From Escherichia coli (GTDB lineage: Bacteria > Pseudomonadota > Gammaproteobacteria > Enterobacterales > Enterobacteriaceae), in the NCBI RefSeq assembly GCF_001677475.2, contig NZ_CP015229.1: 64,000 bases of DNA; one strand, written 5' to 3'. This document shows positions 2 to 60,194 of this stretch, in pieces. The stretch's first letter is position 1. Each line of letters starts with the position of its first letter. The position numbers and the translations under genes were made by a program. The notes beneath the pieces were generated by a model. The model worked only from the letters and a program-made list of their open reading frames with translations, had not been told where the DNA came from and made no database searches.

Positions 2-469
2 ACGCTGACGGTTTCTAACCTGTACGGTATGGTCACCGGGATGGCGGAAGATCTGCAGAGTCTGGTCGGCGGAACGGTGGTCCGGCGTAAGGTTTACGCC
101 CGTTTTCTGGATGCGGTGAACTTCGTCAACGGAAACAGTGACGCCGATCCGGAGCAGGAGGTGATCAGCCGCTGGCGCATTGAGCAGTGCAGCGAACTGA
201 GCGCGGTGAGTGCCTCTTTTGTACTGTCCACGCCGACGGAAACGGACGGCGCTGTTTTTCCGGGACGTATCATGCTGGCCAACACCTGCACCTGGACCTA
301 TCGCGGCGATGAGTGCGGTTATCACGGTCCGGCGGTCGCGGATGAATATGACCAGCCAACGTCCGATATCACGAAGGATAAATGCAGCAAATGCCTGAGC
401 GGTTGTAAGTACCGCAATAACGTCGGCAACTTTGGCGGCTTCCTTTCCATTAACAAACTTTCGCAGTAA
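2..469 (+). CDS. L: Lambda-like minor tail protein L, C-terminal part (N-terminus lies upstream of the window)
   Basis: Frame open from base 2; translation (TLTVSNLYGMVTGMAED...FLSINKLSQ) matches the phage lambda L C-terminus as recalled; followed by K, I, J in lambda order. Confidence 0.8.
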   Translation, partial: TLTVSNLYGMVTGMAEDLQSLVGGTVVRRKVYARFLDAVNFVNGNSDADPEQEVISRWRIEQCSELSAVSASFVLSTPTETDGAVFPGRIMLANTCTWTYRGDECGYHGPAVADEYDQPTSDITKDKCSKCLSGCKYRNNVGNFGGFLSINKLSQ

Positions 470-542
470 ATCCCATGTATTAGACGTCAACTAGTTTTGC
501 CGACTCGCGCCAACTATACTGGCCGCACCCTTCAGGGCGACA

Positions 543-1298
543 TCAAGTCGCGCTTGTTACTGCCTTCGCTGTCTTTTTCCTGTAGCTTTCCCCTTTCAGT
601 TCGAACATATATCCGTGATGGAGCAGCCTGTCTGCCGCAGCCACCGCCATAGTCTCATCCACGAAGATGCTGCCCCACATGCTGAACGGATGGTTACTGG
701 TTATCACCAGGCTCCCACGTTCATAGCGATGCGCTATTAACTCGAACAGCACACCCGTTTCGGCACTATCGCGTTTGACATAGCCAAGATCATCCACCAC
801 TATCACCCGGTAGCGATCCAGTTTCAGTAGCAGCTCATTCAGTTTCAACTGAGCTCTGGCTTTACGTAGTTCCTGCAACAGCTCTCCTGCGCTGTAGAAC
901 CGGGCCCGGTAGCCCTGACCTACTACGCCATCCACGATCGCTGCCGCCAGATGGCTTTTCCCCAACCCGCTGGCTCCGAACAGCAGAACGTTTTCTCCTG
1001 CATCAACCCAGTCTGTCGTTTCACAGAGTTGCCGGAACTGAGCTCCATTCAGTTCCGGCACCTGACTGAAGTCGTATTCGCTCAGCGTTTTGGCAACTGG
1101 CAACCGGGCCTCCTTTTTATAACGACGCAGTTTTTCACTCTCGCGCCACAGGAGTTCTTCATTGCATAGCGTCAGAAGATAGCGCGATGGTGTCCAGCCT
1201 TCTGCCAGCGCTCGTTTTTCCAGAGCGTGCCATTCAGCTCCAACTCGTGTCAGGCGTAGTTTACGCAGGCTATGTTCAAGGTGATGGATATTGCTCAC
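543..1298 (-). CDS. istB: IS21-family transposition helper ATPase IstB
   Basis: 251 aa ORF with Walker A motif GASGLGKSH and typical IstB length; start overlaps istA stop. Confidence 0.9.
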   Translation of the reverse strand: MSNIHHLEHSLRKLRLTRVGAEWHALEKRALAEGWTPSRYLLTLCNEELLWRESEKLRRYKKEARLPVAKTLSEYDFSQVPELNGAQFRQLCETTDWVDAGENVLLFGASGLGKSHLAAAIVDGVVGQGYRARFYSAGELLQELRKARAQLKLNELLLKLDRYRVIVVDDLGYVKRDSAETGVLFELIAHRYERGSLVITSNHPFSMWGSIFVDETMAVAAADRLLHHGYMFELKGESYRKKTAKAVTSAT

Positions 1299-2890: not shown

Positions 2891-3634
2891 ATGACACAGA
2901 CTGAATCAGCGATTCTGGCGCACGCCCGGCGGTGTTCGCCTGCGGAATCGTGCGGCTTCGTGGTGAGAACGCCGGAGGGAGACAGGTATCTTCCCTGCGT
3001 GAATATCTCCGGTGAGCCGGAGGCGTATTTCCGGATGTCGCCGGAGGACTGGCTGCGGGCAGAAATGCAGGGTGAGATTGTGGCGCTGGTCCACAGCCAC
3101 CCCGGTGGACTGCCCTGGCTGAGTGAGGCCGACAGGCGGCTGCAGGTGCAGAGTGATTTGCCGTGGTGGCTGGTCTGCCGGGGGGCGATTCACAAGTTCC
3201 GCTGTGTGCCACATCTTACCGGGCGACGCTTTGAGTACGGGGTGACGGACTGTTACACGCTGTTCCGGGATGCTTACCATCTGGCGGGGATTGAGATGCC
3301 GGATTTTCATCGCGGGGATGACTGGTGGCGTAACGGCCAGAATCTCTATCTGGATAATCTGGAGGCCACAGGGCTGTATCAGGTGCCGTTGTCATCAGCA
3401 CAACCGGGCGATGTGCTGCTGTGCTGTTTTGGTTCATCGGTGCCGAATCATGCCGCCATTTACTGCGGCGACGGCGAGCTGCTGCACCATATTCCTGAAC
3501 AACTGAGCAAACGAGAGAGGTATACCGACAAATGGCAGCGACGCACACACTCCCTCTGGCGTCACCGGGCATGGCACGCATCTGCCTTTACGGGGATTTA
3601 CAACGATTTGGCCGCCGCATCGACCTTCGTGTGA
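2891..3634 (+). CDS. K: Lambda-like tail assembly protein K (JAB/MPN metalloprotease-like plus NlpC/P60-like domains)
   Basis: 247 aa ORF; JAMM motif HSHx7Sx2D (HSHPGGLPWLSEAD); C-terminus matches lambda K as recalled; overlaps I by about 100 nt as in lambda; alternative internal start at 3035 corresponds to the classical 199-aa lambda K. Confidence 0.85.
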   Translation: MTQTESAILAHARRCSPAESCGFVVRTPEGDRYLPCVNISGEPEAYFRMSPEDWLRAEMQGEIVALVHSHPGGLPWLSEADRRLQVQSDLPWWLVCRGAIHKFRCVPHLTGRRFEYGVTDCYTLFRDAYHLAGIEMPDFHRGDDWWRNGQNLYLDNLEATGLYQVPLSSAQPGDVLLCCFGSSVPNHAAIYCGDGELLHHIPEQLSKRERYTDKWQRRTHSLWRHRAWHASAFTGIYNDLAAASTFV

Positions 3635-4203
3635 AAACGGGGGCCGAAGCCATCCGGGCGCTGGTCATGCAGATCCCGGCGTTTCGTCAGAAACTGAGCG
3701 ACGGCTGGTATCAGGTACGGATTGCCGGGCGGGACGTCAGCACGTCCGGGTTAACGGCGCAGTTACATGAGACTCTGCCTGATGGCGCTGTGATTCATAT
3801 TGTTCCCAGAGTCGCCGGGGCCAAGTCAGGTGGCGTATTCCAGATTGTCCTGGGGGCTGCCGCCATTGCCGGATCATTCTTTACTGCCGGAGCCACCCTT
3901 GCAGCATGGGGGGCAGCCATTGGGGCCGGTGGTATGACCGGTATCCTGTTTTCTCTCGGTGCCAGTATGGTACTTGGTGGTGTGGCGCAGATGCTGGCAC
4001 CGAAAGCCAGAACTCCCCGTACACAGACAACGGATAACGGTAAGCAGAACACCTATTTCTCCTCACTGGATAACATGGTTGCCCAGGGCAATGTTCTGCC
4101 TGTTCTGTACGGTGAAATGCGCGTGGGGTCGCGGGTGGCTTCTCAGGAGATCAGCACGGCAGACGAGGGGGACGGTGGTCAGGTTGTGGTGATTGGTCGC
4201 TGA
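3532..4203 (+). CDS. I: Lambda-like tail assembly protein I
   Basis: 223 aa ORF, same length and position as lambda I; Gly/Ala-rich hydrophobic C-terminal half. Confidence 0.85.
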   Translation: MAATHTLPLASPGMARICLYGDLQRFGRRIDLRVKTGAEAIRALVMQIPAFRQKLSDGWYQVRIAGRDVSTSGLTAQLHETLPDGAVIHIVPRVAGAKSGGVFQIVLGAAAIAGSFFTAGATLAAWGAAIGAGGMTGILFSLGASMVLGGVAQMLAPKARTPRTQTTDNGKQNTYFSSLDNMVAQGNVLPVLYGEMRVGSRVASQEISTADEGDGGQVVVIGR

Positions 4204-4263: not shown

Positions 4264-7200
4264 ATGGGTAAAGGCAGCAGTAAGGGGCATACCCCGCGCG
4301 AAGCGAAGGATAACCTGAAGTCCACGCAGTTGCTGAGTGTGATCGATGCCATCAGCGAAGGGCCGGTTGAAGGTCCGGTGGATGGATTAAAAAGCGTGCT
4401 GCTGAACAGTACGCCGGTGCTGGACAGTGAGGGGAATACCAATATCTCCGGTGTCACGGTGGTGTTCCGTGCAGGTGAGCAGGAGCAGACACCGCCGGAG
4501 GGATTTGAATCCTCCGGCTCCGAGACGGTGCTGGGTACGGAAGTGAAGTACGACACGCCGATTACCCGGACCATCACGTCTGCAAACATCGACCGTCTGC
4601 GCTTTACCTTCGGTGTGCAGGCACTGGTGGAAACCACCTCAAAGGGGGACCGGAATCCGTCGGAAGTCCGCCTGCTGGTTCAGATACAACGTAACGGTGG
4701 CTGGGTGACGGAAAAAGACATCACCATTAAGGGAAAAACCACCTCACAGTATCTGGCCTCGGTGGTGGTGGGTAACCTGCCGCCGCGCCCGTTCAGTATC
4801 CGGATGCGCAGGATGACGCCGGACAGCACTACAGACCAGCTGCAGAACAAAACGCTCTGGTCGTCATACACCGAAATCATCGATGTGAAACAGGGCTACC
4901 CGAACACGGCACTGGTCGGTGTACAGGTGGACTCGGAGCAGTTCGGCAGCCAGCAGGTGAGTCGTAATTATCATCTTCGCGGGCGCATTCTGCAGGTGCC
5001 GTCGAACTATAACCCGCAGACGCGGCAATACAGCAGTATCTGGGACGGAACGTTTAAACCGGCATACAGCAACAACATGGCCTGGTGTCTGTGGGATATG
5101 CTGACCCATCCGCGCTACGGCATGGGGAAACGTCTTGGTGCGGCGGATGTGGATAAATGGGCGCTGTATGTCATCGGCCAGTACTGCGACCAGTCAGTGC
5201 CGGACGGCTTTGGCGGCACGGAGCCGCGCATCACCTGTAATGCTTACCTGACAACACAGCGTAAGGCGTGGGATGTGCTCAGTGATTTCTGCTCGGCGAT
5301 GCGCTGTATGCCGGTATGGAACGGGCAGACGCTGACGTTCGTGCAGGACCGGCCGTCGGATAAGGTGTGGACCTATAACCGCAGTAATGTGGTGATGCCG
5401 GATGACGGCGCGCCGTTCCGCTACAGCTTCAGCGCCCTGAAGGACCGCCATAATGCCGTTGAGGTGAACTGGATTGACCCGGACAACGGCTGGGAGACGG
5501 CAACAGAGCTTGTGGAGGACACGCAGGCCATTGCCCGTTACGGTCGTAACGTCACGAAGATGGATGCCTTTGGCTGTACCAGCCGGGGGCAGGCGCACCG
5601 CGCCGGGCTGTGGCTGATTAAAACGGAACTGCTGGAAACGCAGACCGTGGACTTCAGCGTGGGTGCCGAAGGGCTTCGCCATGTGCCGGGCGATATCATT
5701 GAAATCTGCGATGATGACTATGCGGGTATCAGCATCGGTGGTCGCGTGCTGGCGGTGAACAGCCAGACCCGGACGCTGACGCTCGACCGTGAAATCACGC
5801 TGCCATCCTCCGGCACCACTCTGATAAGCCTGGTTGACGGAAATGGCAATCCGGTCAGCGTGGAGGTTCAGTCCGTCACCGACGGCATGAAGGTGAAAGT
5901 GAGCCGTGTTCCTGACGGCGTTGCAGAATACAGCGTGTGGGGGCTGAAGCTGCCGACGCTGCGCCAGCGCCTGTTCCGCTGCGTGAGTATCCGTGAGAAC
6001 GACGACGGCACGTATGCCATCACTGCCGTGCAGCATGTACCGGAAAAAGAAGCCATCGTGGATAACGGGGCGCACTTTGACGGCGACCAGAGCGGCACGG
6101 TGAATGGTGTCACGCCGCCAGCGGTGCAGCACCTTACCGCCGAAGTCACCGCAGACAGCGGGGAGTATCAGGTACTGGCCCGCTGGGACACGCCGAAGGT
6201 GGTGAAGGGCGTGAGCTTCATGCTTCGCCTGACCGTGGCAGCGGACGACGGCAGTGAGCGGCTGGTCAGCACAGCCCGGACGACGGAAACCACATACCGC
6301 TTCAGACAACTGGCGCTGGGGCGTTATATGCTGACGGTCCGGGCGGTAAATGCCCGGGGGCAGCAGGGTGATCCGGCGTCGGTATCGTTCCGGATTGCGG
6401 CACCGGTAGCGCCTGTCACTATTGAACTGATACCGGGGTATTTTCAGATAACGGCGGTCCCGAAACTGGCTGTATATGACCCGACGGTACAGTTTGAGTT
6501 CTGGTTATCGGAAAAGCGGATTATCGATATCAGGCAGGTTGAAACCACAGCCCGCTATCTTGGTACGGCGCTGTACTGGATAGCCTCCGGACCGGATATT
6601 GAGCCGGGCAATAATTATTATTTTTACGTTCGCAGTGTGAATACCGTCGGCAAATCGGCATTTGTGGAGGCTGTTGGCCAGCCGGGTAACGATGCTGAGA
6701 AATATCTCCATTTTTTTGAAGGGAAAATAAACAGCACCCTGCTGGGGCAGGAGCTGAACGATCGTATTAATGCCTCGGCATTGCGCAGTGAAGTTGAGCA
6801 ACTGGAGGATGAGATCAATCAGCAGATAGAGAGTGATATTGCTGAAGTGACCCAAAAAATCGGGGAGACAGAAAACAGCCTCACGCAGCTGGTTGCGAAA
6901 AAAAATGATGAGCTGTCACTGGGTATATCACAGGTGAGCCAGAGAGTGGATAACGTCAGCAGCGAACTCACGCAGACGGTCAGTCAGAGTAATGAGGAGA
7001 ATGCACGCCAGATAGCGCAGGTTCGCCAGTATGTGGATCAAAAAAGCAGTGAAATCATGACGACAACGGACCAGAAGCTGGGAGATCAGGAGGCCACCAT
7101 CCAGCAGATACAAAAGGTTCAGACGGACACCAGTAATAACCTGAACAGTATGTGGGCCGTGAAACTGCAGCAGATGCAGGATGGTCGCCTTTATATTGCG

Positions 7201-13548: not shown

Positions 13549-13775
13549 TGAATAAATCCTTTAGTTATTTTATTTGCCTTTTATCCCCATTTCGGGGAGT
13601 GAAAACATCCTAAAGGAGAAGTTCAGTTAGCCGATAAATATCATTTGTTACGCCTTAAGTAAAACCTTAATCAAATAATTCCTCTGAAATGACAATAAGT
13701 CTTGTGAATGTATCGAAGATAATACATACAAAATAAAAATTATACTTTTAATTTGCTATACGTTATTCTGCGCGG

Positions 13776-13884
13776 GTTATATGCCTTTATTGTCACAGAT
13801 TTTATTTTCTGTTGGGCCATTGCATTGCCACTGATTTTCCAACATATAAAAAGACAAGCCCGAACAGTCGTCCGGGCTTTTTTT
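13776..13884 (+). ncRNA. micC: MicC small regulatory RNA (Hfq-dependent, represses ompC)
   Basis: Sequence GTTATATGCCTTTATTGTCACAGATTTTATTTTCTGTTGGGCC...CCCGAACAGTCGTCCGGGCTTTTTTT matches recalled MicC including the terminator hairpin; ompN-ydbK intergenic position. Confidence 0.9.
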
Positions 13885-13913
13885 TAGAATTGGATAATCC
13901 TTATCCAGAGCAT

Positions 13914-19704: not shown

Positions 19705-22344
19705 ATGCTGGGTAAATATAAAGCCGTTCTCGCGCTGTTATTACTGATTATTCTTGTGCCGTTGACGCTGCTGATGACGCTCGGGCTGTGGGTTCCCACG
19801 CTGGCGGGCATCTGGCTACCGCTCGGGACACGTATTGCATTAGATGAAAGCCCACGCATTACGCGTAAAGGTTTAATCATTCCCGATCTCCGTTATCTGG
19901 TGGGAGATTGTCAGCTTGCGCATATCACCAACGCCAGCCTTTCACATCCCAGCCGCTGGTTATTGAACGTCGGCACGGTAGAACTTGATTCAGCTTGTCT
20001 GGCGAAATTGCCGCAGACGGAGCAATCGCCAGCTGCTCCAAAAACCCTCGCGCAGTGGCAGGCCATGTTGCCTAACACCTGGATCAATATCGATAAACTG
20101 ATTTTTTCTCCCTGGCAGGAATGGCAGGGAAAACTTTCTCTCGCGTTAACCTCTGATATCCAGCAACTGCGTTATCAGGGCGAAAAAGTTAAATTTCAAG
20201 GCCAGTTGAAAGGGCAACAACTTACAGTCAGCGAACTGGATGTCGCCGCGTTTGAAAATCAGCCACCGGTAAAACTGGTGGGGGAATTTACTATGCCGCT
20301 CGTGCCGGATGGACTTCCTGTCAGTGGCCATGCTACTGCGACGTTAAACTTGCCGCAGGAACCGTCACTGGTGGATGCCGAGCTGGACTGGCAGGAAAAT
20401 AGCGGGCAATTGATTGTGCTGGCACGGGATAACGGCGATCCGTTGCTCGATTTGCCGTGGCAAATTACTCGTCAACAATTGACCGTAAGCGATGGTCGCT
20501 GGAGCTGGCCGTATGCAGGTTTTCCTTTGAGTGGCCGACTGGGTGTCAAAGTCGACAACTGGCAGGCAGGGCTTGAGAACGCTCTGGTCAGCGGACGACT
20601 GAGTGTGCTGACCCAGGGGCAAGCGGGTAAGGGCAACGCGGTGCTTAATTTTGGCCCAGGAAAATTAAGTATGGATAACAGCCAGCTGCCTTTGCAGCTG
20701 ACCGGTGAAGCGAAACAGGCGGACCTCATTTTATATGCCCGCTTACCCGCGCAGCTAAGCGGAAGTCTGACTGACCCAACGCTGGCCTTTGAGCCAGGCG
20801 CGTTATTACGTTCGAAGGGAAGAGTCATCGATTCGCTGGACATCGATGAAATCCGTTGGCCATTAGCGGGTGTAAAAGTCACCCAACGTGGTGTTGACGG
20901 ACGTTTGCAGGCCATTTTGCAGGCGCATGAAAATGAACTGGGCGATTTCGTGCTGCATATGGATGGGCTGGCGAATGATTTTCTCCCTGACGCTGGCCGC
21001 TGGCAGTGGCGCTACTGGGGAAAAGGGAGTTTTACACCGATGAATGCCACCTGGGATGTCGCAGGAAAAGGTGAGTGGCATGACAGCACGATTACGCTGA
21101 CCGATCTCTCCACCGGTTTCGACCAGTTACAATACGGTACGATGACGGTAGAAAAGCCGCGATTAATTCTCGACAAGCCCGTCGTCTGGGTACGTGACGC
21201 ACAGCATCCCTCCTTCAGCGGCGCGCTGTCACTGGACGCCGGGCAAACGCTGTTCACTGGCGGCAGTGTGTTACCGCCATCAACCTTAAAATTTAGCGTC
21301 GATGGACGCGAACCGACGTATTTCCTCTTTAAAGGCGATTTACATGCTGGTGAGATTGGCCCGGTTCGGGTAAATGGTCGCTGGGACGGTATTCGTCTGC
21401 GCGGTAACGCCTGGTGGCCTAAACAATCACTGACTGTATTCCAGCCGCTGGTGCCACCCGACTGGAAGATGAACTTACGCGATGGCGAACTGTATGCTCA
21501 GGTCGCATTTTCTGCTGCGCCTGAACAAGGATTCCGCGCGGGAGGGCACGGTGTGTTGAAAGGCGGTAGTGCCTGGATGCCAGATAATCAGGTTAACGGT
21601 GTCGATTTTGTCCTGCCTTTCCGTTTTGCCGATGGAGCCTGGCATCTGGGGACTCGCGGCCCCGTTACGTTGCGAATTGCCGAAGTGATTAATCTGGTGA
21701 CAGCGAAAAATATTACGGCTGATTTGCAAGGGCGCTATCCGTGGACAGAAGAAGAACCATTGCTGTTGACTGATGTTAGCGTCGATGTGTTAGGCGGTAA
21801 CGTGCTGATGAAACAATTACGTATGCCGCAACATGACCCGGCGCTGTTGCGGCTGAATAATCTCTCATCCAGCGAACTGGTTAGCGCCGTCAATCCGAAA
21901 CAATTCGCCATGTCCGGGGCATTTAGTGGTGCATTGCCGTTATGGCTAAACAACGAAAAATGGATAGTGAAAGATGGTTGGCTGGCAAATAGCGGGCCAA
22001 TGACCTTGCGGCTGGATAAAGACACCGCAGATGCGGTGGTGAAAGACAATATGACTGCGGGTTCAGCAATTAACTGGTTGCGCTATATGGAAATTAGCCG
22101 TTCATCGACAAATATTAATTTAGATAATCTCGGTTTATTAACCATGCAGGCCAACATTACAGGTACCAGTCGCGTTGATGGTAAAAGCGGTACGGTAAAC
22201 CTTAATTACCATCATGAAGAGAATATTTTTACGCTGTGGCGCAGTTTACGCTTTGGCGATAATCTCCAGGCATGGTTGGAGCAGAACGCACGTCTGCCGG
22301 GAAATGACTGTCCGCAAGGAAAAGAGTGTGAGGAAAAACAATGA
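19705..22344 (+). CDS. ydbH: AsmA/TamB-like envelope protein YdbH
   Basis: 879 aa with N-terminal TM segment; K-12 synteny. Confidence 0.9.
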   Translation: MLGKYKAVLALLLLIILVPLTLLMTLGLWVPTLAGIWLPLGTRIALDESPRITRKGLIIPDLRYLVGDCQLAHITNASLSHPSRWLLNVGTVELDSACLAKLPQTEQSPAAPKTLAQWQAMLPNTWINIDKLIFSPWQEWQGKLSLALTSDIQQLRYQGEKVKFQGQLKGQQLTVSELDVAAFENQPPVKLVGEFTMPLVPDGLPVSGHATATLNLPQEPSLVDAELDWQENSGQLIVLARDNGDPLLDLPWQITRQQLTVSDGRWSWPYAGFPLSGRLGVKVDNWQAGLENALVSGRLSVLTQGQAGKGNAVLNFGPGKLSMDNSQLPLQLTGEAKQADLILYARLPAQLSGSLTDPTLAFEPGALLRSKGRVIDSLDIDEIRWPLAGVKVTQRGVDGRLQAILQAHENELGDFVLHMDGLANDFLPDAGRWQWRYWGKGSFTPMNATWDVAGKGEWHDSTITLTDLSTGFDQLQYGTMTVEKPRLILDKPVVWVRDAQHPSFSGALSLDAGQTLFTGGSVLPPSTLKFSVDGREPTYFLFKGDLHAGEIGPVRVNGRWDGIRLRGNAWWPKQSLTVFQPLVPPDWKMNLRDGELYAQVAFSAAPEQGFRAGGHGVLKGGSAWMPDNQVNGVDFVLPFRFADGAWHLGTRGPVTLRIAEVINLVTAKNITADLQGRYPWTEEEPLLLTDVSVDVLGGNVLMKQLRMPQHDPALLRLNNLSSSELVSAVNPKQFAMSGAFSGALPLWLNNEKWIVKDGWLANSGPMTLRLDKDTADAVVKDNMTAGSAINWLRYMEISRSSTNINLDNLGLLTMQANITGTSRVDGKSGTVNLNYHHEENIFTLWRSLRFGDNLQAWLEQNARLPGNDCPQGKECEEKQ

Positions 22345-22526
22345 AAATTTTACTGGCTGCGTTGACGTCATCTTTTATGCTGGTTGGCTGTACGCCTCGC
22401 ATTGAAGTCGCTGCACCTAAGGAACCGATCACTATCAATATGAACGTTAAAATTGAGCATGAGATCATCATCAAGGCAGACAAAGATGTTGAAGAGCTGC
22501 TTGAAACTCGTAGCGATCTTTTTTGA
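22341..22526 (+). CDS. ynbE: Small lipoprotein YnbE
   Basis: 61 aa, lipobox LVGC; start overlaps ydbH stop (ATGA). Confidence 0.8.
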   Translation: MKILLAALTSSFMLVGCTPRIEVAAPKEPITINMNVKIEHEIIIKADKDVEELLETRSDLF

Positions 22527-22533
22527 GGTGATG

Positions 22534-22860
22534 ATGAAAAGAACATTGCTTCTTTGTGCATTTCTTGTTGGGCTGGTAAGCAGCAATGTAATGGCATTGA
22601 CTCTGGATGAAGCCAGAACTCAGGGGCGGGTAGGTGAAACATTTTATGGTTATCTGGTTGCGCTGAAAACGGATGCTGAAACAGAGAAATTAGTAACCGA
22701 AATTAATGCCGAACGTAAAGCGAGTTACCAACAACTGGCAAAGCAAAATAATGTGTCTGTAGATGATATCGCGAAACTCGCCGGGCAAAAGCTCGTAGCT
22801 CGGGCCAAACCGGGGGAATATGTACAAGGGATAAACGGTAAATGGGTGCGAAAATTTTAA
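22534..22860 (+). CDS. ydbL: Periplasmic protein YdbL (DUF1318)
   Basis: 108 aa from MKRTLLLCAFLVGL... with signal peptide; the 135-aa ORF-track start overlapping ynbE is rejected. Confidence 0.8.
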   Translation: MKRTLLLCAFLVGLVSSNVMALTLDEARTQGRVGETFYGYLVALKTDAETEKLVTEINAERKASYQQLAKQNNVSVDDIAKLAGQKLVARAKPGEYVQGINGKWVRKF

Positions 22861-23031
22861 TAGCAAAACCGCAATATCGGGATAACGCTACAGGAGAAAG
22901 CGATTGATCTATTTTCATGAAACAAGTTGAATATTCAAAAACTCCTGTCAAATTGCCTTTCGCCCTGAAAAATGCATAGTCAACTATCTGTTTTAACTAA
23001 TTGGCGTTGCAGTACACACAACGCGAATTAG

Positions 23032-23937
23032 TTAGCGGAATTTACGTCGATACTCGCCTGGCGTCATCCCAAAGCGTTGCTTAAATACCGTTGAAAAATG
23101 ACTCTGGTCAGAAAATCCCCAATGAAAGCCGATGCCTGCCAGTTTTTCATCATCTGCGGCATGGCGAATCGCATCTGCACAAAAATCGAGACGACGGTTA
23201 CGAATATATTGCGCGACTACCAAACCTTTATCGGCAAACATTCGGTACAAACTACGTACTGACATACCTGTCTCTCCGGCTATCCACTCCGGGCGTAATA
23301 TCTCTTCGCGAATATTATCGTCTATCAACGTAACCACTTTTTGAAACTGACGTTCACGGCGAGGTTGGACAGATTCCCGCTGATGAAGTACTGGGCGAAG
23401 CAGACACACCATCGCCTGTAGCGCAGCTTCACTTTCTGTTTCAGAAAGTGCCGGATTATTCATGCTCTCCTGTAACAGGCGATGACTGAGTTGCACCATG
23501 GGTAAGTCAGCGTCCAGTCTTTCTGCGCAGACAGGTTTTTGATGGGGAAAATATTGTTCCAGCAGAGTGCGTGGCAAAAGTAATGAAATCTGTTTAGAAG
23601 ACTCCTGCCAGTAAAGCGAACAGGGGCGTGAGGCATCGAGTAACGTAATATCGCCAGCGCCAATCTGCACCTGACGCTCATCCTGCTCCATTATTGCCTG
23701 ACCACTAAGCTGAAAAACGGTGTAAAACCAGGCATCGTCGCTGCCTTTTATTTCCTGCCAGGTGCGGGATAAATTCACCCCGCTGGTTGTCACGGTACTC
23801 AGCTTTAGTCCTTTGGCAAAATGCGTATCCAGTACACCCGTGTAACGCTCAGTCAGCAGGCGTCCGGTAAAATTTCCGCATACCTGATTGATTTGGGAAA
23901 GCCATTGCTGAAACTCATTATCCACTGCGGGGTTCAT
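23032..23937 (-). CDS. feaR: AraC-family transcriptional activator of feaB/tynA
   Basis: 301 aa with C-terminal AraC-type HTH. Confidence 0.9.
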   Translation of the reverse strand: MNPAVDNEFQQWLSQINQVCGNFTGRLLTERYTGVLDTHFAKGLKLSTVTTSGVNLSRTWQEIKGSDDAWFYTVFQLSGQAIMEQDERQVQIGAGDITLLDASRPCSLYWQESSKQISLLLPRTLLEQYFPHQKPVCAERLDADLPMVQLSHRLLQESMNNPALSETESEAALQAMVCLLRPVLHQRESVQPRRERQFQKVVTLIDDNIREEILRPEWIAGETGMSVRSLYRMFADKGLVVAQYIRNRRLDFCADAIRHAADDEKLAGIGFHWGFSDQSHFSTVFKQRFGMTPGEYRRKFR

Positions 23938-24172
23938 GGCACGTTTTCGCTCTGTGAAATGTATTTTTATTGTTGCATTTGTGTTGCAATAAACGAAGCT
24001 AATGAGCCTGACTATAGGAAATAAGTCTTGTCAGGCATAGAGACATAAGCGGTTATTGTCACGATTTGCGGAGCTTGTCACAGCTGACAAAGCGAATGTC
24101 ACAGCGAAAAAAGTGACTTTTCTTGTCGCTGCGTACACTGAAATCACACTGGGTAAATAATAAGGAAAAGTG

Positions 24173-25672
24173 ATGACAGAGCCGCATGTAGCAGTATTAA
24201 GCCAGGTCCAACAGTTTCTCGATCGTCAACACGGTCTTTATATTGATGGTCGTCCTGGCCCCGCACAAAGTGAAAAACGGTTGGCGATCTTTGATCCGGC
24301 CACCGGGCAAGAAATTGCGTCTACTGCTGATGCCAACGAAGCGGATGTAGATAACGCAGTCATGTCTGCCTGGCGGGCCTTTGTTTCGCGTCGCTGGGCC
24401 GGGCGATTACCCGCAGAGCGTGAACGTATTCTGCTACGTTTTGCTGATCTGGTGGAGCAGCACAGTGAGGAGCTGGCGCAACTGGAAACCCTGGAGCAAG
24501 GCAAGTCAATTGCCATTTCCCGTGCTTTTGAAGTGGGCTGTACGCTGAACTGGATGCGTTATACCGCCGGGTTAACGACCAAAATCGCGGGTAAAACGCT
24601 GGACTTGTCGATTCCCTTACCCCAGGGGGCGCGTTATCAGGCCTGGACGCGTAAAGAGCCGGTTGGCGTGGTAGCGGGAATTGTGCCATGGAACTTTCCG
24701 TTGATGATTGGCATGTGGAAGGTGATGCCAGCACTGGCAGCAGGCTGTTCAATCGTGATTAAGCCTTCGGAAACCACGCCACTGACGATGTTGCGCGTGG
24801 CGGAACTGGCCAGCGAGGCTGGTATCCCTGATGGCGTTTTTAATGTCGTCACCGGGGCCGGTGCTGTATGCGGCGCGGCCCTGACGTCACATCCTCATGT
24901 TGCGAAAATCAGTTTTACCGGTTCAACCGCGACGGGAAAAGGTATTGCCAGAACTGCTGCTGATCGCTTAACGCGTGTAACGCTGGAACTGGGCGGTAAA
25001 AACCCGGCAATTGTATTAAAAGATGCTGATCCGCAATGGGTTATTGAAGGCTTGATGACCGGAAGCTTCCTGAATCAGGGGCAAGTATGCGCCGCCAGTT
25101 CGCGAATTTATATTGAAGCGCCGTTGTTTGACACGCTGGTTAGTGGATTTGAGCAGGCGGTAAAATCGTTGCAAGTGGGACCGGGGATGTCACCTGTTGC
25201 ACAGATTAACCCTTTGGTTTCTCGTGCGCACTGCGACAAAGTGCGTTCATTCCTTGACGATGCGCAGGCACAGCAAGCAGAACTGATTCGCGGGTCGAGT
25301 GGACCAGCCGGAGAGGGGTATTATGTTGCGCCAACGCTGGTGGTTAATCCCGATGCTAAATTGCGCTTAACTCGTGAAGAGGTGTTTGGTCCGGTGGTTA
25401 ACCTGGTGCGAGTAGCAGATGGAGAAGAGGCGTTACAACTGGCAAACGACACGGAATATGGCTTAACTGCCAGTGTCTGGACGCAAAATCTCTCCCGGGC
25501 TCTGGAATATAGCGATCGCTTACAGGCAGGGACGGTGTGGGTAAACAGCCATACCTTAATTGACGCTAACTTACCGTTTGGTGGGATGAAGCAGTCAGGA
25601 ACAGGCCGTGATTTTGGCCCCGACTGGCTGGACGGTTGGTGTGAAACTAAGTCGGTGTGTGTACGGTATTAA
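24173..25672 (+). CDS. feaB: Phenylacetaldehyde dehydrogenase
   Basis: 499 aa aldehyde dehydrogenase (catalytic Cys in QGQVCAA); ATG 24173 after SD AAGGAAAA. Confidence 0.95.
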
Positions 25673-40093: not shown

Positions 40094-40193
40094 CGTGTCG
40101 CCTGGCCCTGGTGAGGTAAAGCGCCAGGGCCAGAAGTCGATACGACCTGTGCTATGATTCATAAATCACAACAATAACAACAGACTGAATCGA

Positions 40194-59157: not shown

Positions 59158-59401
59158 AGGATATTTAAAGAAAACGCCTGTACTAAAACCGACCCGTGGT
59201 ACAGGCGAAGAATACGGGCCTACATCGGAAGCGCCTATTATATTTATTTGTATGACAAATAAAACCATAATCCTTGTCCATACGTCCATCTGGCTTATCT
59301 TTAATCAATTCACCCGATCTTTGATCTCATCAACGGTATCAAAATAAACCAGCGTATAACGTTAAAATCAAACATAAGATTCGATAAATCATGGAGGTTA
59401 T

Positions 59402-59646: not shown

Positions 59647-59839
<193 letters not shown>

Positions 59840-59854
<15 letters not shown>

Positions 59855-59905
59855 TCGTTGGCCTCGGTTGATAGAAATATCGGTCGGGGCCTTCGTCTTT
59901 CTGAT
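59840..59905 (+). ncRNA. sokB: Putative SokB antisense RNA (coordinates approximate)
   Basis: Expected antisense partner opposite the mokB start/leader; placement by analogy to hok/sok, not by sequence match. Confidence 0.3.
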
Positions 59906-60194
59906 TCCCGGTTAGCCTGAAAACAGAAAGTCTCAGGCACCCGTGAGCATCCTATGTGGTTTCCTTAGGGACGAAAATAATCACCTGACGAAATTGCGTG
60001 CTGTTTTCCAGAATTTTTCGTTATTCGGTTTAGCCAGTTTAATCATTCGTTACTCTCTTCATTCCAATGGCATTAATCTTCTCTGCAATAATTGTTGTAA
60101 AAATGTGACGCAAAGAGGTTTTTGGTCGTAAGTAATTACCGTCAAGTGCCGATGACTTTCTATCAGGAGTAAACCTGGAAGAGAGACAACGGTA

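Follow-up and report, generated by a model that had tools for sequence, protein, structure and literature searches.

An inverted repeat lying between the convergent Escherichia coli genes ydbL and feaR is read here, with a probability of about one half, as a protective 3' stem-loop of Rho-terminated transcripts, belonging to the class described by Dar and Sorek (2018). According to these authors, nearly all Rho-dependent transcripts of E. coli end just past stable stem-loops that lack a U-tract, and such ends have more C than G downstream and are made by PNPase/RNase II trimming. The properties observed at the ydbL-feaR locus correspond to those of this class, namely a stable stem-loop lacking a U-tract, an excess of C over G downstream of it and plus strand read-through that rises when Rho is inhibited. 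A sequence-only reading of the same DNA had proposed either a protein-binding palindrome or an RNA-stabilising stem. The latter is the better supported, as the element has all sequence features of U-less protective stem-loops, although no Term-seq end is recorded at this position by Adams et al. (2021).

The window, by which the whole analysed stretch of 64 kb is meant, matched best to strain 2013C-3264 (99.5%) and is E. coli but not K-12. Addition of 1,423,346 to a window coordinate gives the coordinate in MG1655, in which the hairpin corresponds to positions 1446340-1446380. The gene order is ldhA-ydbH-ynbE-ydbL / feaR / feaB-tynA. The proposed location of the repeat between two convergent genes was confirmed, with ydbL ending at 22860 and feaR occupying 23032-23937 on the minus strand (Table 1). 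From these limits of the feaR reading frame it follows that its TAA stop codon (23032-23034) accounts for the 3 bp at the very base of the stem, in agreement with the overlap that had been suggested. The remaining hairpin forms the initial 38 nt of the feaR 3' UTR. A ribosome terminating on feaR must therefore melt the base of the stem, which counts against the protective reading. The RefSeq annotation of MG1655 contains no repeat or regulatory feature at the hairpin. A permissive Rfam scan of positions 22000-24500 gave no match at the hairpin even at E≤10, and a scan of the whole window at the gathering threshold returned MicC, RydC and sok only, none of them at the hairpin.

Table 1. Coordinates of the features at the ydbL-feaR locus (positions in the window).
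Feature	Position	Strand	Description
ydbL CDS	22534-22860	+	last gene of ydbH-ynbE-ydbL, convergent with feaR
C>G-rich rut-like stretch	22773-22915	-	downstream of hairpin, C/G up to 2.2
ydbL-feaR spacer	22861-23031		171 nt, specific to E. coli proper
Stem extension, plus strand RNA only	22987-22991	+	pairs with 23035-23039, includes G·U pairs
Left arm	22994-23009		TAACTAATTGGCGTTG; invariant except 23003 among 129 sampled E. coli sequences
Left member of variable pair	23003		G in window; G, C or A in population
Loop	23010-23018		CAGTACACA in window; polymorphic at 23011 (A/T) and 23017-18 (CA or TG)
Right arm	23019-23034		CAACGCGAATTAGTTA; varies at 23025 only among 129 sampled sequences
Right member of variable pair	23025		G in window; elsewhere C, G or T
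feaR CDS	23032-23937	-	301 aa, AraC-type activator; from open reading frame list and RefSeq annotation
feaR stop codon TAA	23032-23034	-	first 3 nt of hairpin in feaR mRNA
Rho termination region	23155	+	equivalent of MG1655 1446501; 121 nt 3' of hairpin
C>G-rich rut-like stretch	23204-23307	+	downstream of hairpin, C/G 1.9-2.25

The repeat had been described from sequence as a 15-bp stem (22995-23009 paired with 23019-23033) with one mismatch and a loop of 9 nt. The repeat itself, the mismatch and the loop are as described, but the stem is one pair longer (22994/23034), so that each arm comprises 16 nt with 15 of 16 positions complementary. The single mismatch is a G·G opposition of G23003 and G23025. 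In the K-12 allele the stem is a perfect 18-bp helix, as the loop reads CAGTACATG, by which 2 bp are gained and a loop of 5 nt remains. The outer half of the stem is AT-rich. A stem length of 16-18 bp is atypical for a terminator, and it exceeds that of typical protective stems as well, which speaks against the protective reading. Within the 64-kb window, this repeat was the only inverted repeat of 16 nt with at most one mismatch and a loop of 3-20 nt. The number expected by chance was 0.03 per window, as obtained from 200 resamplings with a first-order Markov model that keeps the dinucleotide transition frequencies of the window sequence. The inverted repeat is beyond chance. No further copy of either arm was found in the window when up to 3 mismatches were allowed.

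Calculation of the RNA folding energy, which had been suggested as a check, gave a minimum free energy of -22.7 kcal/mol (z -5.5) for the plus strand RNA and of -17.8 kcal/mol (z -4.2) for the minus strand RNA of the window allele, and 0 of 200 shuffled sequences folded as well. The perfect 18-bp allele of K-12 reached -33 and -27.7 kcal/mol as RNA (z about -7), and its plus strand helix of 18 bp is followed by 5 more pairs beyond a 2-nt internal loop. Folded as DNA, the window and K-12 alleles gave -13.6 kcal/mol (z -4.7) and -21.3 kcal/mol (z -9.2), respectively. The perfect or near-perfect arms are thus able to form a DNA hairpin, as expected of a quasipalindrome. Among the 50-nt folds of the window, the 25 most stable ones do not include the window allele; they are GC-rich hairpins, mostly of coding regions. 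What sets the repeat apart, given its composition, is its length and its perfection and not its raw free energy. No second terminator-like structure was found in the ydbL-feaR spacer.

The absence of a flanking U-run, noted earlier, held when both strands were read. The plus strand continues GCGGAATTTACG and the minus strand AAAACAGATAG, and a U-tract of about 7-8 nt directly 3' of the stem is absent (GCGGAAUUUACG on the plus and AAAACAGAUAG on the minus strand). A consensus scan of the spacer for promoters and terminators gave no match. Published data indicated how plus strand transcription ends at this locus. Adams et al. (2021; PMC7815308, Supplementary file 2) list a Rho termination region on the plus strand at MG1655 1446501, antisense to feaR, with a Rho score of 4.03 (p 1.3e-5). 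The ratio of reads downstream and upstream of this point was 14/54 in untreated cells and 91/87 in the presence of bicyclomycin, a signal that is coarse (800-nt windows) and refers to the plus strand only (Adams et al., 2021; PMC7815308). Since downstream coverage equals upstream coverage when Rho is inhibited, the hairpin alone does not stop plus strand transcription. This Rho-dependent loss of plus strand transcripts, together with the missing U-tract, agrees with the view that the element is no classic intrinsic terminator. Moreover, on both strands a stretch 100-250 nt beyond the hairpin reaches a C to G ratio of about 2.2, which is near the 99th percentile of the 78-nt windows of the analysed stretch. 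For MG1655 positions 1446200-1446599, the curated Term-seq data contain no 3' end on either strand in any of three conditions (Adams et al., 2021; PMC7815308, Supplementary file 1). This absence is weak evidence because both operons were weakly expressed in those conditions. Neither feaR nor ydbL is listed in the TERMITe tables, and in the nitrogen-starvation RIL-seq tables both appear in expression lists only.

The distribution of the element was analyzed within and beyond E. coli. It was present in 4,195 of 5,426 complete E. coli genomes, always at one locus; the second place reported per genome was the palindrome matching itself, and the element is a single copy. Genomes that lack it, such as those of O157:H7, also lack the feaR-paa segment. 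Not all E. coli carry this segment, whose left edge is the 3' flank of ydbL. In B2-type strains, a deletion joins a remnant of feaR to paaX or paaY and the hairpin is kept, and in one strain the junction of an IS1-mediated deletion lies inside the hairpin loop. A search of plasmids and phages yielded mislabelled chromosomal fragments only. Outside of E. coli proper, scanning of genome contigs with the FeaR protein returned 5 loci, and the hairpin was found in none of them. Two Pseudocitrobacter species and one Pluralibacter have kept the synteny, and the stop codons of feaR and ydbL nearly abut. In a divergent non-coli Escherichia lineage with a FeaR of 96% identity, the two genes are separated by about 70 nt of unrelated sequence, in which the hairpin is absent and which gave no match in the complete E. 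coli genomes. Conservation across the Enterobacteriaceae, a further check that had been suggested, was thus found in part: the hairpin is fixed within E. coli proper and absent from the related lineages. It is therefore a young, lineage-specific feature and not an ancient conserved element. That the nearest lineages outside E. coli lack the element, and that feaR and ydbL of related genera do without the spacer, counts against the protective reading.

Sequence variation was assessed in an alignment of 129 E. coli sequences (9 genomes and 120 metagenome contigs). All arm positions were invariant except the pair 23003/23025, the last 7 nt of the right arm being set by the search pattern used for the metagenomes and hence not free to vary. 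In the spacer upstream of the hairpin, 20 of 133 positions were polymorphic. Haplotypes were defined by the left base of the variable pair, loop position 23011, loop positions 23017-18 and the right base of the pair, and were counted exactly in the 4,195 genomes. The K-12 type, G-A-TG-C, with its perfect 18-bp stem, loop of 5 nt and folding energies of -27.7/-33 kcal/mol, was present in 1,398 genomes. Perfect 16-bp stems are formed by G-A-CA-C (1,319 genomes) and C-T-TG-G (880 genomes), and G-A-TG-G, which has a G·G mismatch, was found in 408 genomes. The remaining 190 genomes carry other haplotypes, including A-T-TG-T, C-A-CA-C with a C·C mismatch and G-A-CA-G, the haplotype of the window. 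A Watson-Crick pair (G-C, C-G or A-T) was thus present at 23003/23025 in about 86% of the genomes. The occurrence of three Watson-Crick forms suggests that pairing is maintained at this pair, for which the two compensated states as well as the two mismatched intermediates were present; a covariation test over the 7 distinct haplotypes was not significant against shuffles. The mismatch allele G-A-TG-G persists in about 10% of the genomes, and any selection on perfect pairing would therefore be weak.

The 81-nt version of the window was matched at ≥99% in 11 of 4,199 genomes. On flanking markers, the window allele is nested in the G-A-CA-C clade and so reflects a recent C to G change at 23025. 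The mismatch of the window, as judged from these haplotypes, is a rare derived accident at strain level and not a designed feature. Loop positions 23017-18 were always CA or TG, single-base intermediates were never seen, and with TG the palindrome gains exactly 2 bp. Such a switch of several nucleotides at once has the appearance of being copied from the opposite arm. On a tree of the flanks, the hairpin sites change 3-6 times and several flank sites 4-7 times. Since the homoplasy of flank sites equals that of the hairpin sites, recombination is rife and hypermutability of the variable pair is not established.

According to the protective reading, the transcript of either strand would fold into a very stable U-less stem-loop. 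In feaR mRNA this stem-loop would directly open the 3' UTR, and in the ydbH-ynbE-ydbL transcript it would be part of the 3' tail. The hairpin would most likely be no stop for RNA polymerase. Instead, Rho would end transcription diffusely about 100-250 nt past the hairpin, where the RNA is untranslated and antisense to the opposing gene, and the 3' to 5' exonucleases PNPase and RNase II would trim the transcripts back until blocked by the hairpin. In this way, the hairpin would determine where the steady-state 3' ends of the two convergent transcripts lie and would shield them. A halt of trimming at the hairpin and a resulting stabilisation of the mRNA are predictions of this reading. One element could serve both transcripts because it is a true palindrome. 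Its near-perfect symmetry is probably kept at the DNA level by template-switch correction from arm to arm, with or without selection on the RNA.

This model corresponds in several respects to the known Rho-dependent protective stem-loops. Like these, the hairpin is a stable stem-loop just past a gene, has no U-rich tract and is followed by a stretch with more C than G. Moreover, an A-tract ahead of it is absent on the feaR strand, the genes are of low expression, and on the plus strand a region of Rho-dependent termination has been mapped just downstream. The element differs from them in the length and perfection of its stem (16-18 bp), which are unusual against the terminator-like stems of the class, in the start of the stem at the stop codon, in that the steady-state 3' end at the hairpin is predicted and not mapped, and in being a true palindrome that belongs to two convergent transcripts and is not a REP element. 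REP/BIME sequences are likewise extragenic palindromes at gene 3' ends that are able to stabilise upstream mRNA. In contrast to these, the ydbL-feaR repeat is present in single copy, belongs to no multi-copy family, has an AT-rich outer stem and is unannotated as a repeat in MG1655.

An explanation that is possible, though it appears less probable than the protective one, is that the palindrome is neutral: it would have arisen beside the feaR stop codon by inverted duplication or template switch in the ancestor of E. coli and been kept near-perfect by template switching, any effects on RNA being incidental. Its confinement to E. coli proper, within a lineage-specific spacer, is in favor of this view, as are the strict alternation of CA and TG, which has the look of a templated change, and the coexistence of both compensated states with both mismatch intermediates at the variable pair. 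The mismatch is tolerated in 408 of 4,195 genomes, and because one mismatch still leaves -17.8 (minus strand) to -22.7 kcal/mol (plus strand), selection for its repair would be weak. Perfect inverted repeats were found to be over-conserved in MG1655, which was attributed to template switching (Lavi et al., 2018; PMC5941160). The perfect 18-bp repeat of MG1655 with its 5-nt spacer resembles the quasipalindromes of this study and of the assays of the Lovett laboratory, and so do the extension by a dinucleotide, the compensated changes at one pair and the coexistence of imperfect and perfect forms. Unlike the conserved repeats of Lavi et al. (2018; PMC5941160), the ydbL-feaR repeat is not conserved beyond E. 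coli, and template switching is here suggested by allele patterns, much of which is also explained by recombination among alleles. Neutrality would, however, leave room for a functional consequence, as any read-through RNA contains the hairpin. Constraint is hinted at by the other free arm positions, of which 0 of 23 vary against 15% polymorphic positions in the adjacent spacer, a contrast that is marginal (p ~0.02) when the arms are not corrected for and not significant if they co-evolve. As a description of origin, neutral emergence is compatible with the protective mechanism. A more elaborate reading, which must be regarded as improbable, is a quasipalindrome caught in a natural population in the middle of its cycle. 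The variable pair and the loop dinucleotide would flip repeatedly by template switching, the C to G change at 23025 would be recurrent, and the ribosome at the feaR stop codon would gate the hairpin and thereby couple translation to 3'-end protection.

A non-canonical bidirectional terminator that depends on the hairpin, perhaps helped by head-on collisions of polymerases, would fit the exact placement between convergent genes and the folding on both strands. The likeness to intrinsic (Rho-independent) terminators, including bidirectional ones, consists in the position of a stable stem-loop between convergent genes and in its folding on either strand, and the extended plus strand stem is followed by AUUUAC, a weak tract of 3 U, and preceded by CUGUUUU. 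Such a terminator is nevertheless quite unlikely, as the 7-8 nt U-tract is missing from both strands, the consensus scan was empty, the stem has an AT-rich base and is far longer than usual terminator stems, and plus strand termination is Rho-dependent, the 91 against 87 reads under Rho inhibition implying little termination by the hairpin. Another proposal is that the helix, or a duplex of the convergent transcripts, is cleaved by RNase III and lowers mRNA stability. RNase III substrates usually have a size of about two helical turns, which is approached by the K-12 plus strand helix of 18 bp plus 5 pairs (18-23 bp). The window allele has only 16 bp and is mismatched, and RNase III processing is considered very unlikely. 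The protein-binding palindrome of the sequence-only reading, that is a double-stranded DNA site for a dimeric regulator, nucleoid protein or replication-terminus factor, is similarly doubtful and was not upheld. The repeat is symmetric and its outer arms are invariant in sequence, but it lies between two gene 3' ends in a spacer with no promoter-like site, its arms are 16-18 contiguous bp and not two short half-sites, its inner positions vary, and it is absent in related genera. The centre of the K-12 allele, GTTGCA-N5-TGCAAC, resembles inverted octamer halves of the CytR type. This likeness, seen by eye, was rejected, since the half-site occurs in TG-loop alleles only and is disrupted in the window as well as in about one third of genomes, which have the CA loop. 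Inspection by eye, with no formal test, revealed no likeness to matS, Ter or REP sequences. The most remote of these proposals, finally, is that the repeat is what remains of a mobile element or of the feaR-paa island boundary, for example a terminal inverted repeat, MITE, REP-like element or attachment site. The variable presence of feaR-paa, with the ydbL 3' flank as its left edge, and the IS1-mediated deletion ending in the loop of one strain would fit it. However, there is one copy per genome and no second copy of an arm in the window, plasmids and phages gave mislabelled chromosomal fragments only, and MG1655 RefSeq annotates no repeat at the hairpin. Moreover, the homology of feaR-paa-less genomes to the window stops at 22845-22924, upstream of the hairpin, and the hairpin is therefore not the junction.

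The element is most likely an ordinary addition to the known class of U-less protective stem-loops. The population data provide a small, clean case of the evolution of a long palindrome, in which the two arms appear to change in concert and the stem is lengthened by an exchange of two adjacent bases. If the protective reading is true, weakly expressed Rho-terminated genes would obtain nuclease-resistant 3' ends from the hairpin, and one palindrome would do so for both convergent partners. This would be useful for annotating the transcript ends of feaR and ydbHL and would leave present concepts unchanged.

The loop of the hairpin, the 16-nt inverted repeat at the feaR stop codon, varies in a patterned way within the E. 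coli population. The dinucleotide at window positions 23017-23018 is strictly CA or TG, at a CA:TG ratio of about 1:2, and no single-base intermediate between the two was found among 129 sequences. TG at these positions extends the stem to 18 bp. Alleles with C or A at 23003 (C/G-type and A/T-type, after the stem pair 23003/23025) also have T at 23011. Judged from these sequences, the loop variation at 23011 and 23017-23018 looks like templated multi-nucleotide change. In the stem, the C to G transversion at 23025 that is the source of the G·G mismatch occurs on at least two or three distinct flank backgrounds, namely the window lineage, the large G-A-TG-G clade (bases at 23003, 23011, 23017-23018 and 23025) and a possible recombinant. 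It may have arisen by recurrent mutation or been carried by very short conversion tracts, and both fit the data.

The spacer between ydbL and feaR also contains an AT-rich perfect 12-nt palindrome (TTGAATATTCAA, 22927-22938), which includes the polymorphic sites 22927, 22931 and 22936.

Larger rearrangements were observed around the hairpin. In many strains, those with the C/G-type and A/T-type alleles, a deletion joins a 200-250 nt feaR 3' remnant to truncated paaX or paaY, and the hairpin is kept beside the dead gene fragment. In a single strain, ETEC1739, the chromosome/IS1 junction lies within the hairpin loop (…GGCGTTGCAG/GGTGATGCTGCC…). Since feaR and the genes downstream of it are replaced in this strain, the event is an IS1-mediated adjacent deletion with its endpoint inside the palindrome. 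The feaR-paa segment is absent from O157:H7 and some other strains, in which ydbL shares only about 80% identity with the window's allele and a large ydbA/BigA-type autotransporter gene directly follows it. This makes the 3' flank of ydbL a structural-variation hotspot.

Coordinates of RNA matches, junctions and rearranged loci
Feature	Sequence	Position	Strand	Window equivalent
MicC	window	13773-13893	+	
RydC	window	59168-59231	-	
sok antitoxin RNA	window	59791-59942	-	
Chromosome/IS1 junction	L002, E. coli ETEC1739	4397-4480		23012/23013
feaR-remnant fusion	L010, E. coli Z30	307-580		about 23240-23290
feaR-remnant fusion	L011, E. coli CD306	308-581		about 23240-23290
feaR-paa absent	L138, O157:H7 FRIK804	3426-3749		
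feaR-paa absent	L139			
feaR/ydbL coding-end junction	L013	3900-3915		
feaR/ydbL coding-end junction	L014	3900-3915		
feaR/ydbL coding-end junction	L015	3903-3918		

Elsewhere in the window, the Rfam gathering-score matches to MicC, RydC and a sok antitoxin RNA fit the E. coli ompN-to-hokB chromosomal region. Of all 50-nt folds in the window, the most stable lies at 40101-40150 (-28.8 kcal/mol on the plus strand, -26.3 on the minus strand) and is a GC-rich palindrome of 12 bp, CCTGGCCCTGGT…GCCAGGGCCAGA.

In Pseudocitrobacter and Pluralibacter (L013, L014 and L015), the convergent coding ends of feaR and ydbL are 0-3 nt apart (TGATTA), with neither an intergenic spacer nor the hairpin between them. 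With this arrangement, the 3' end of each mRNA must lie inside the opposing gene.
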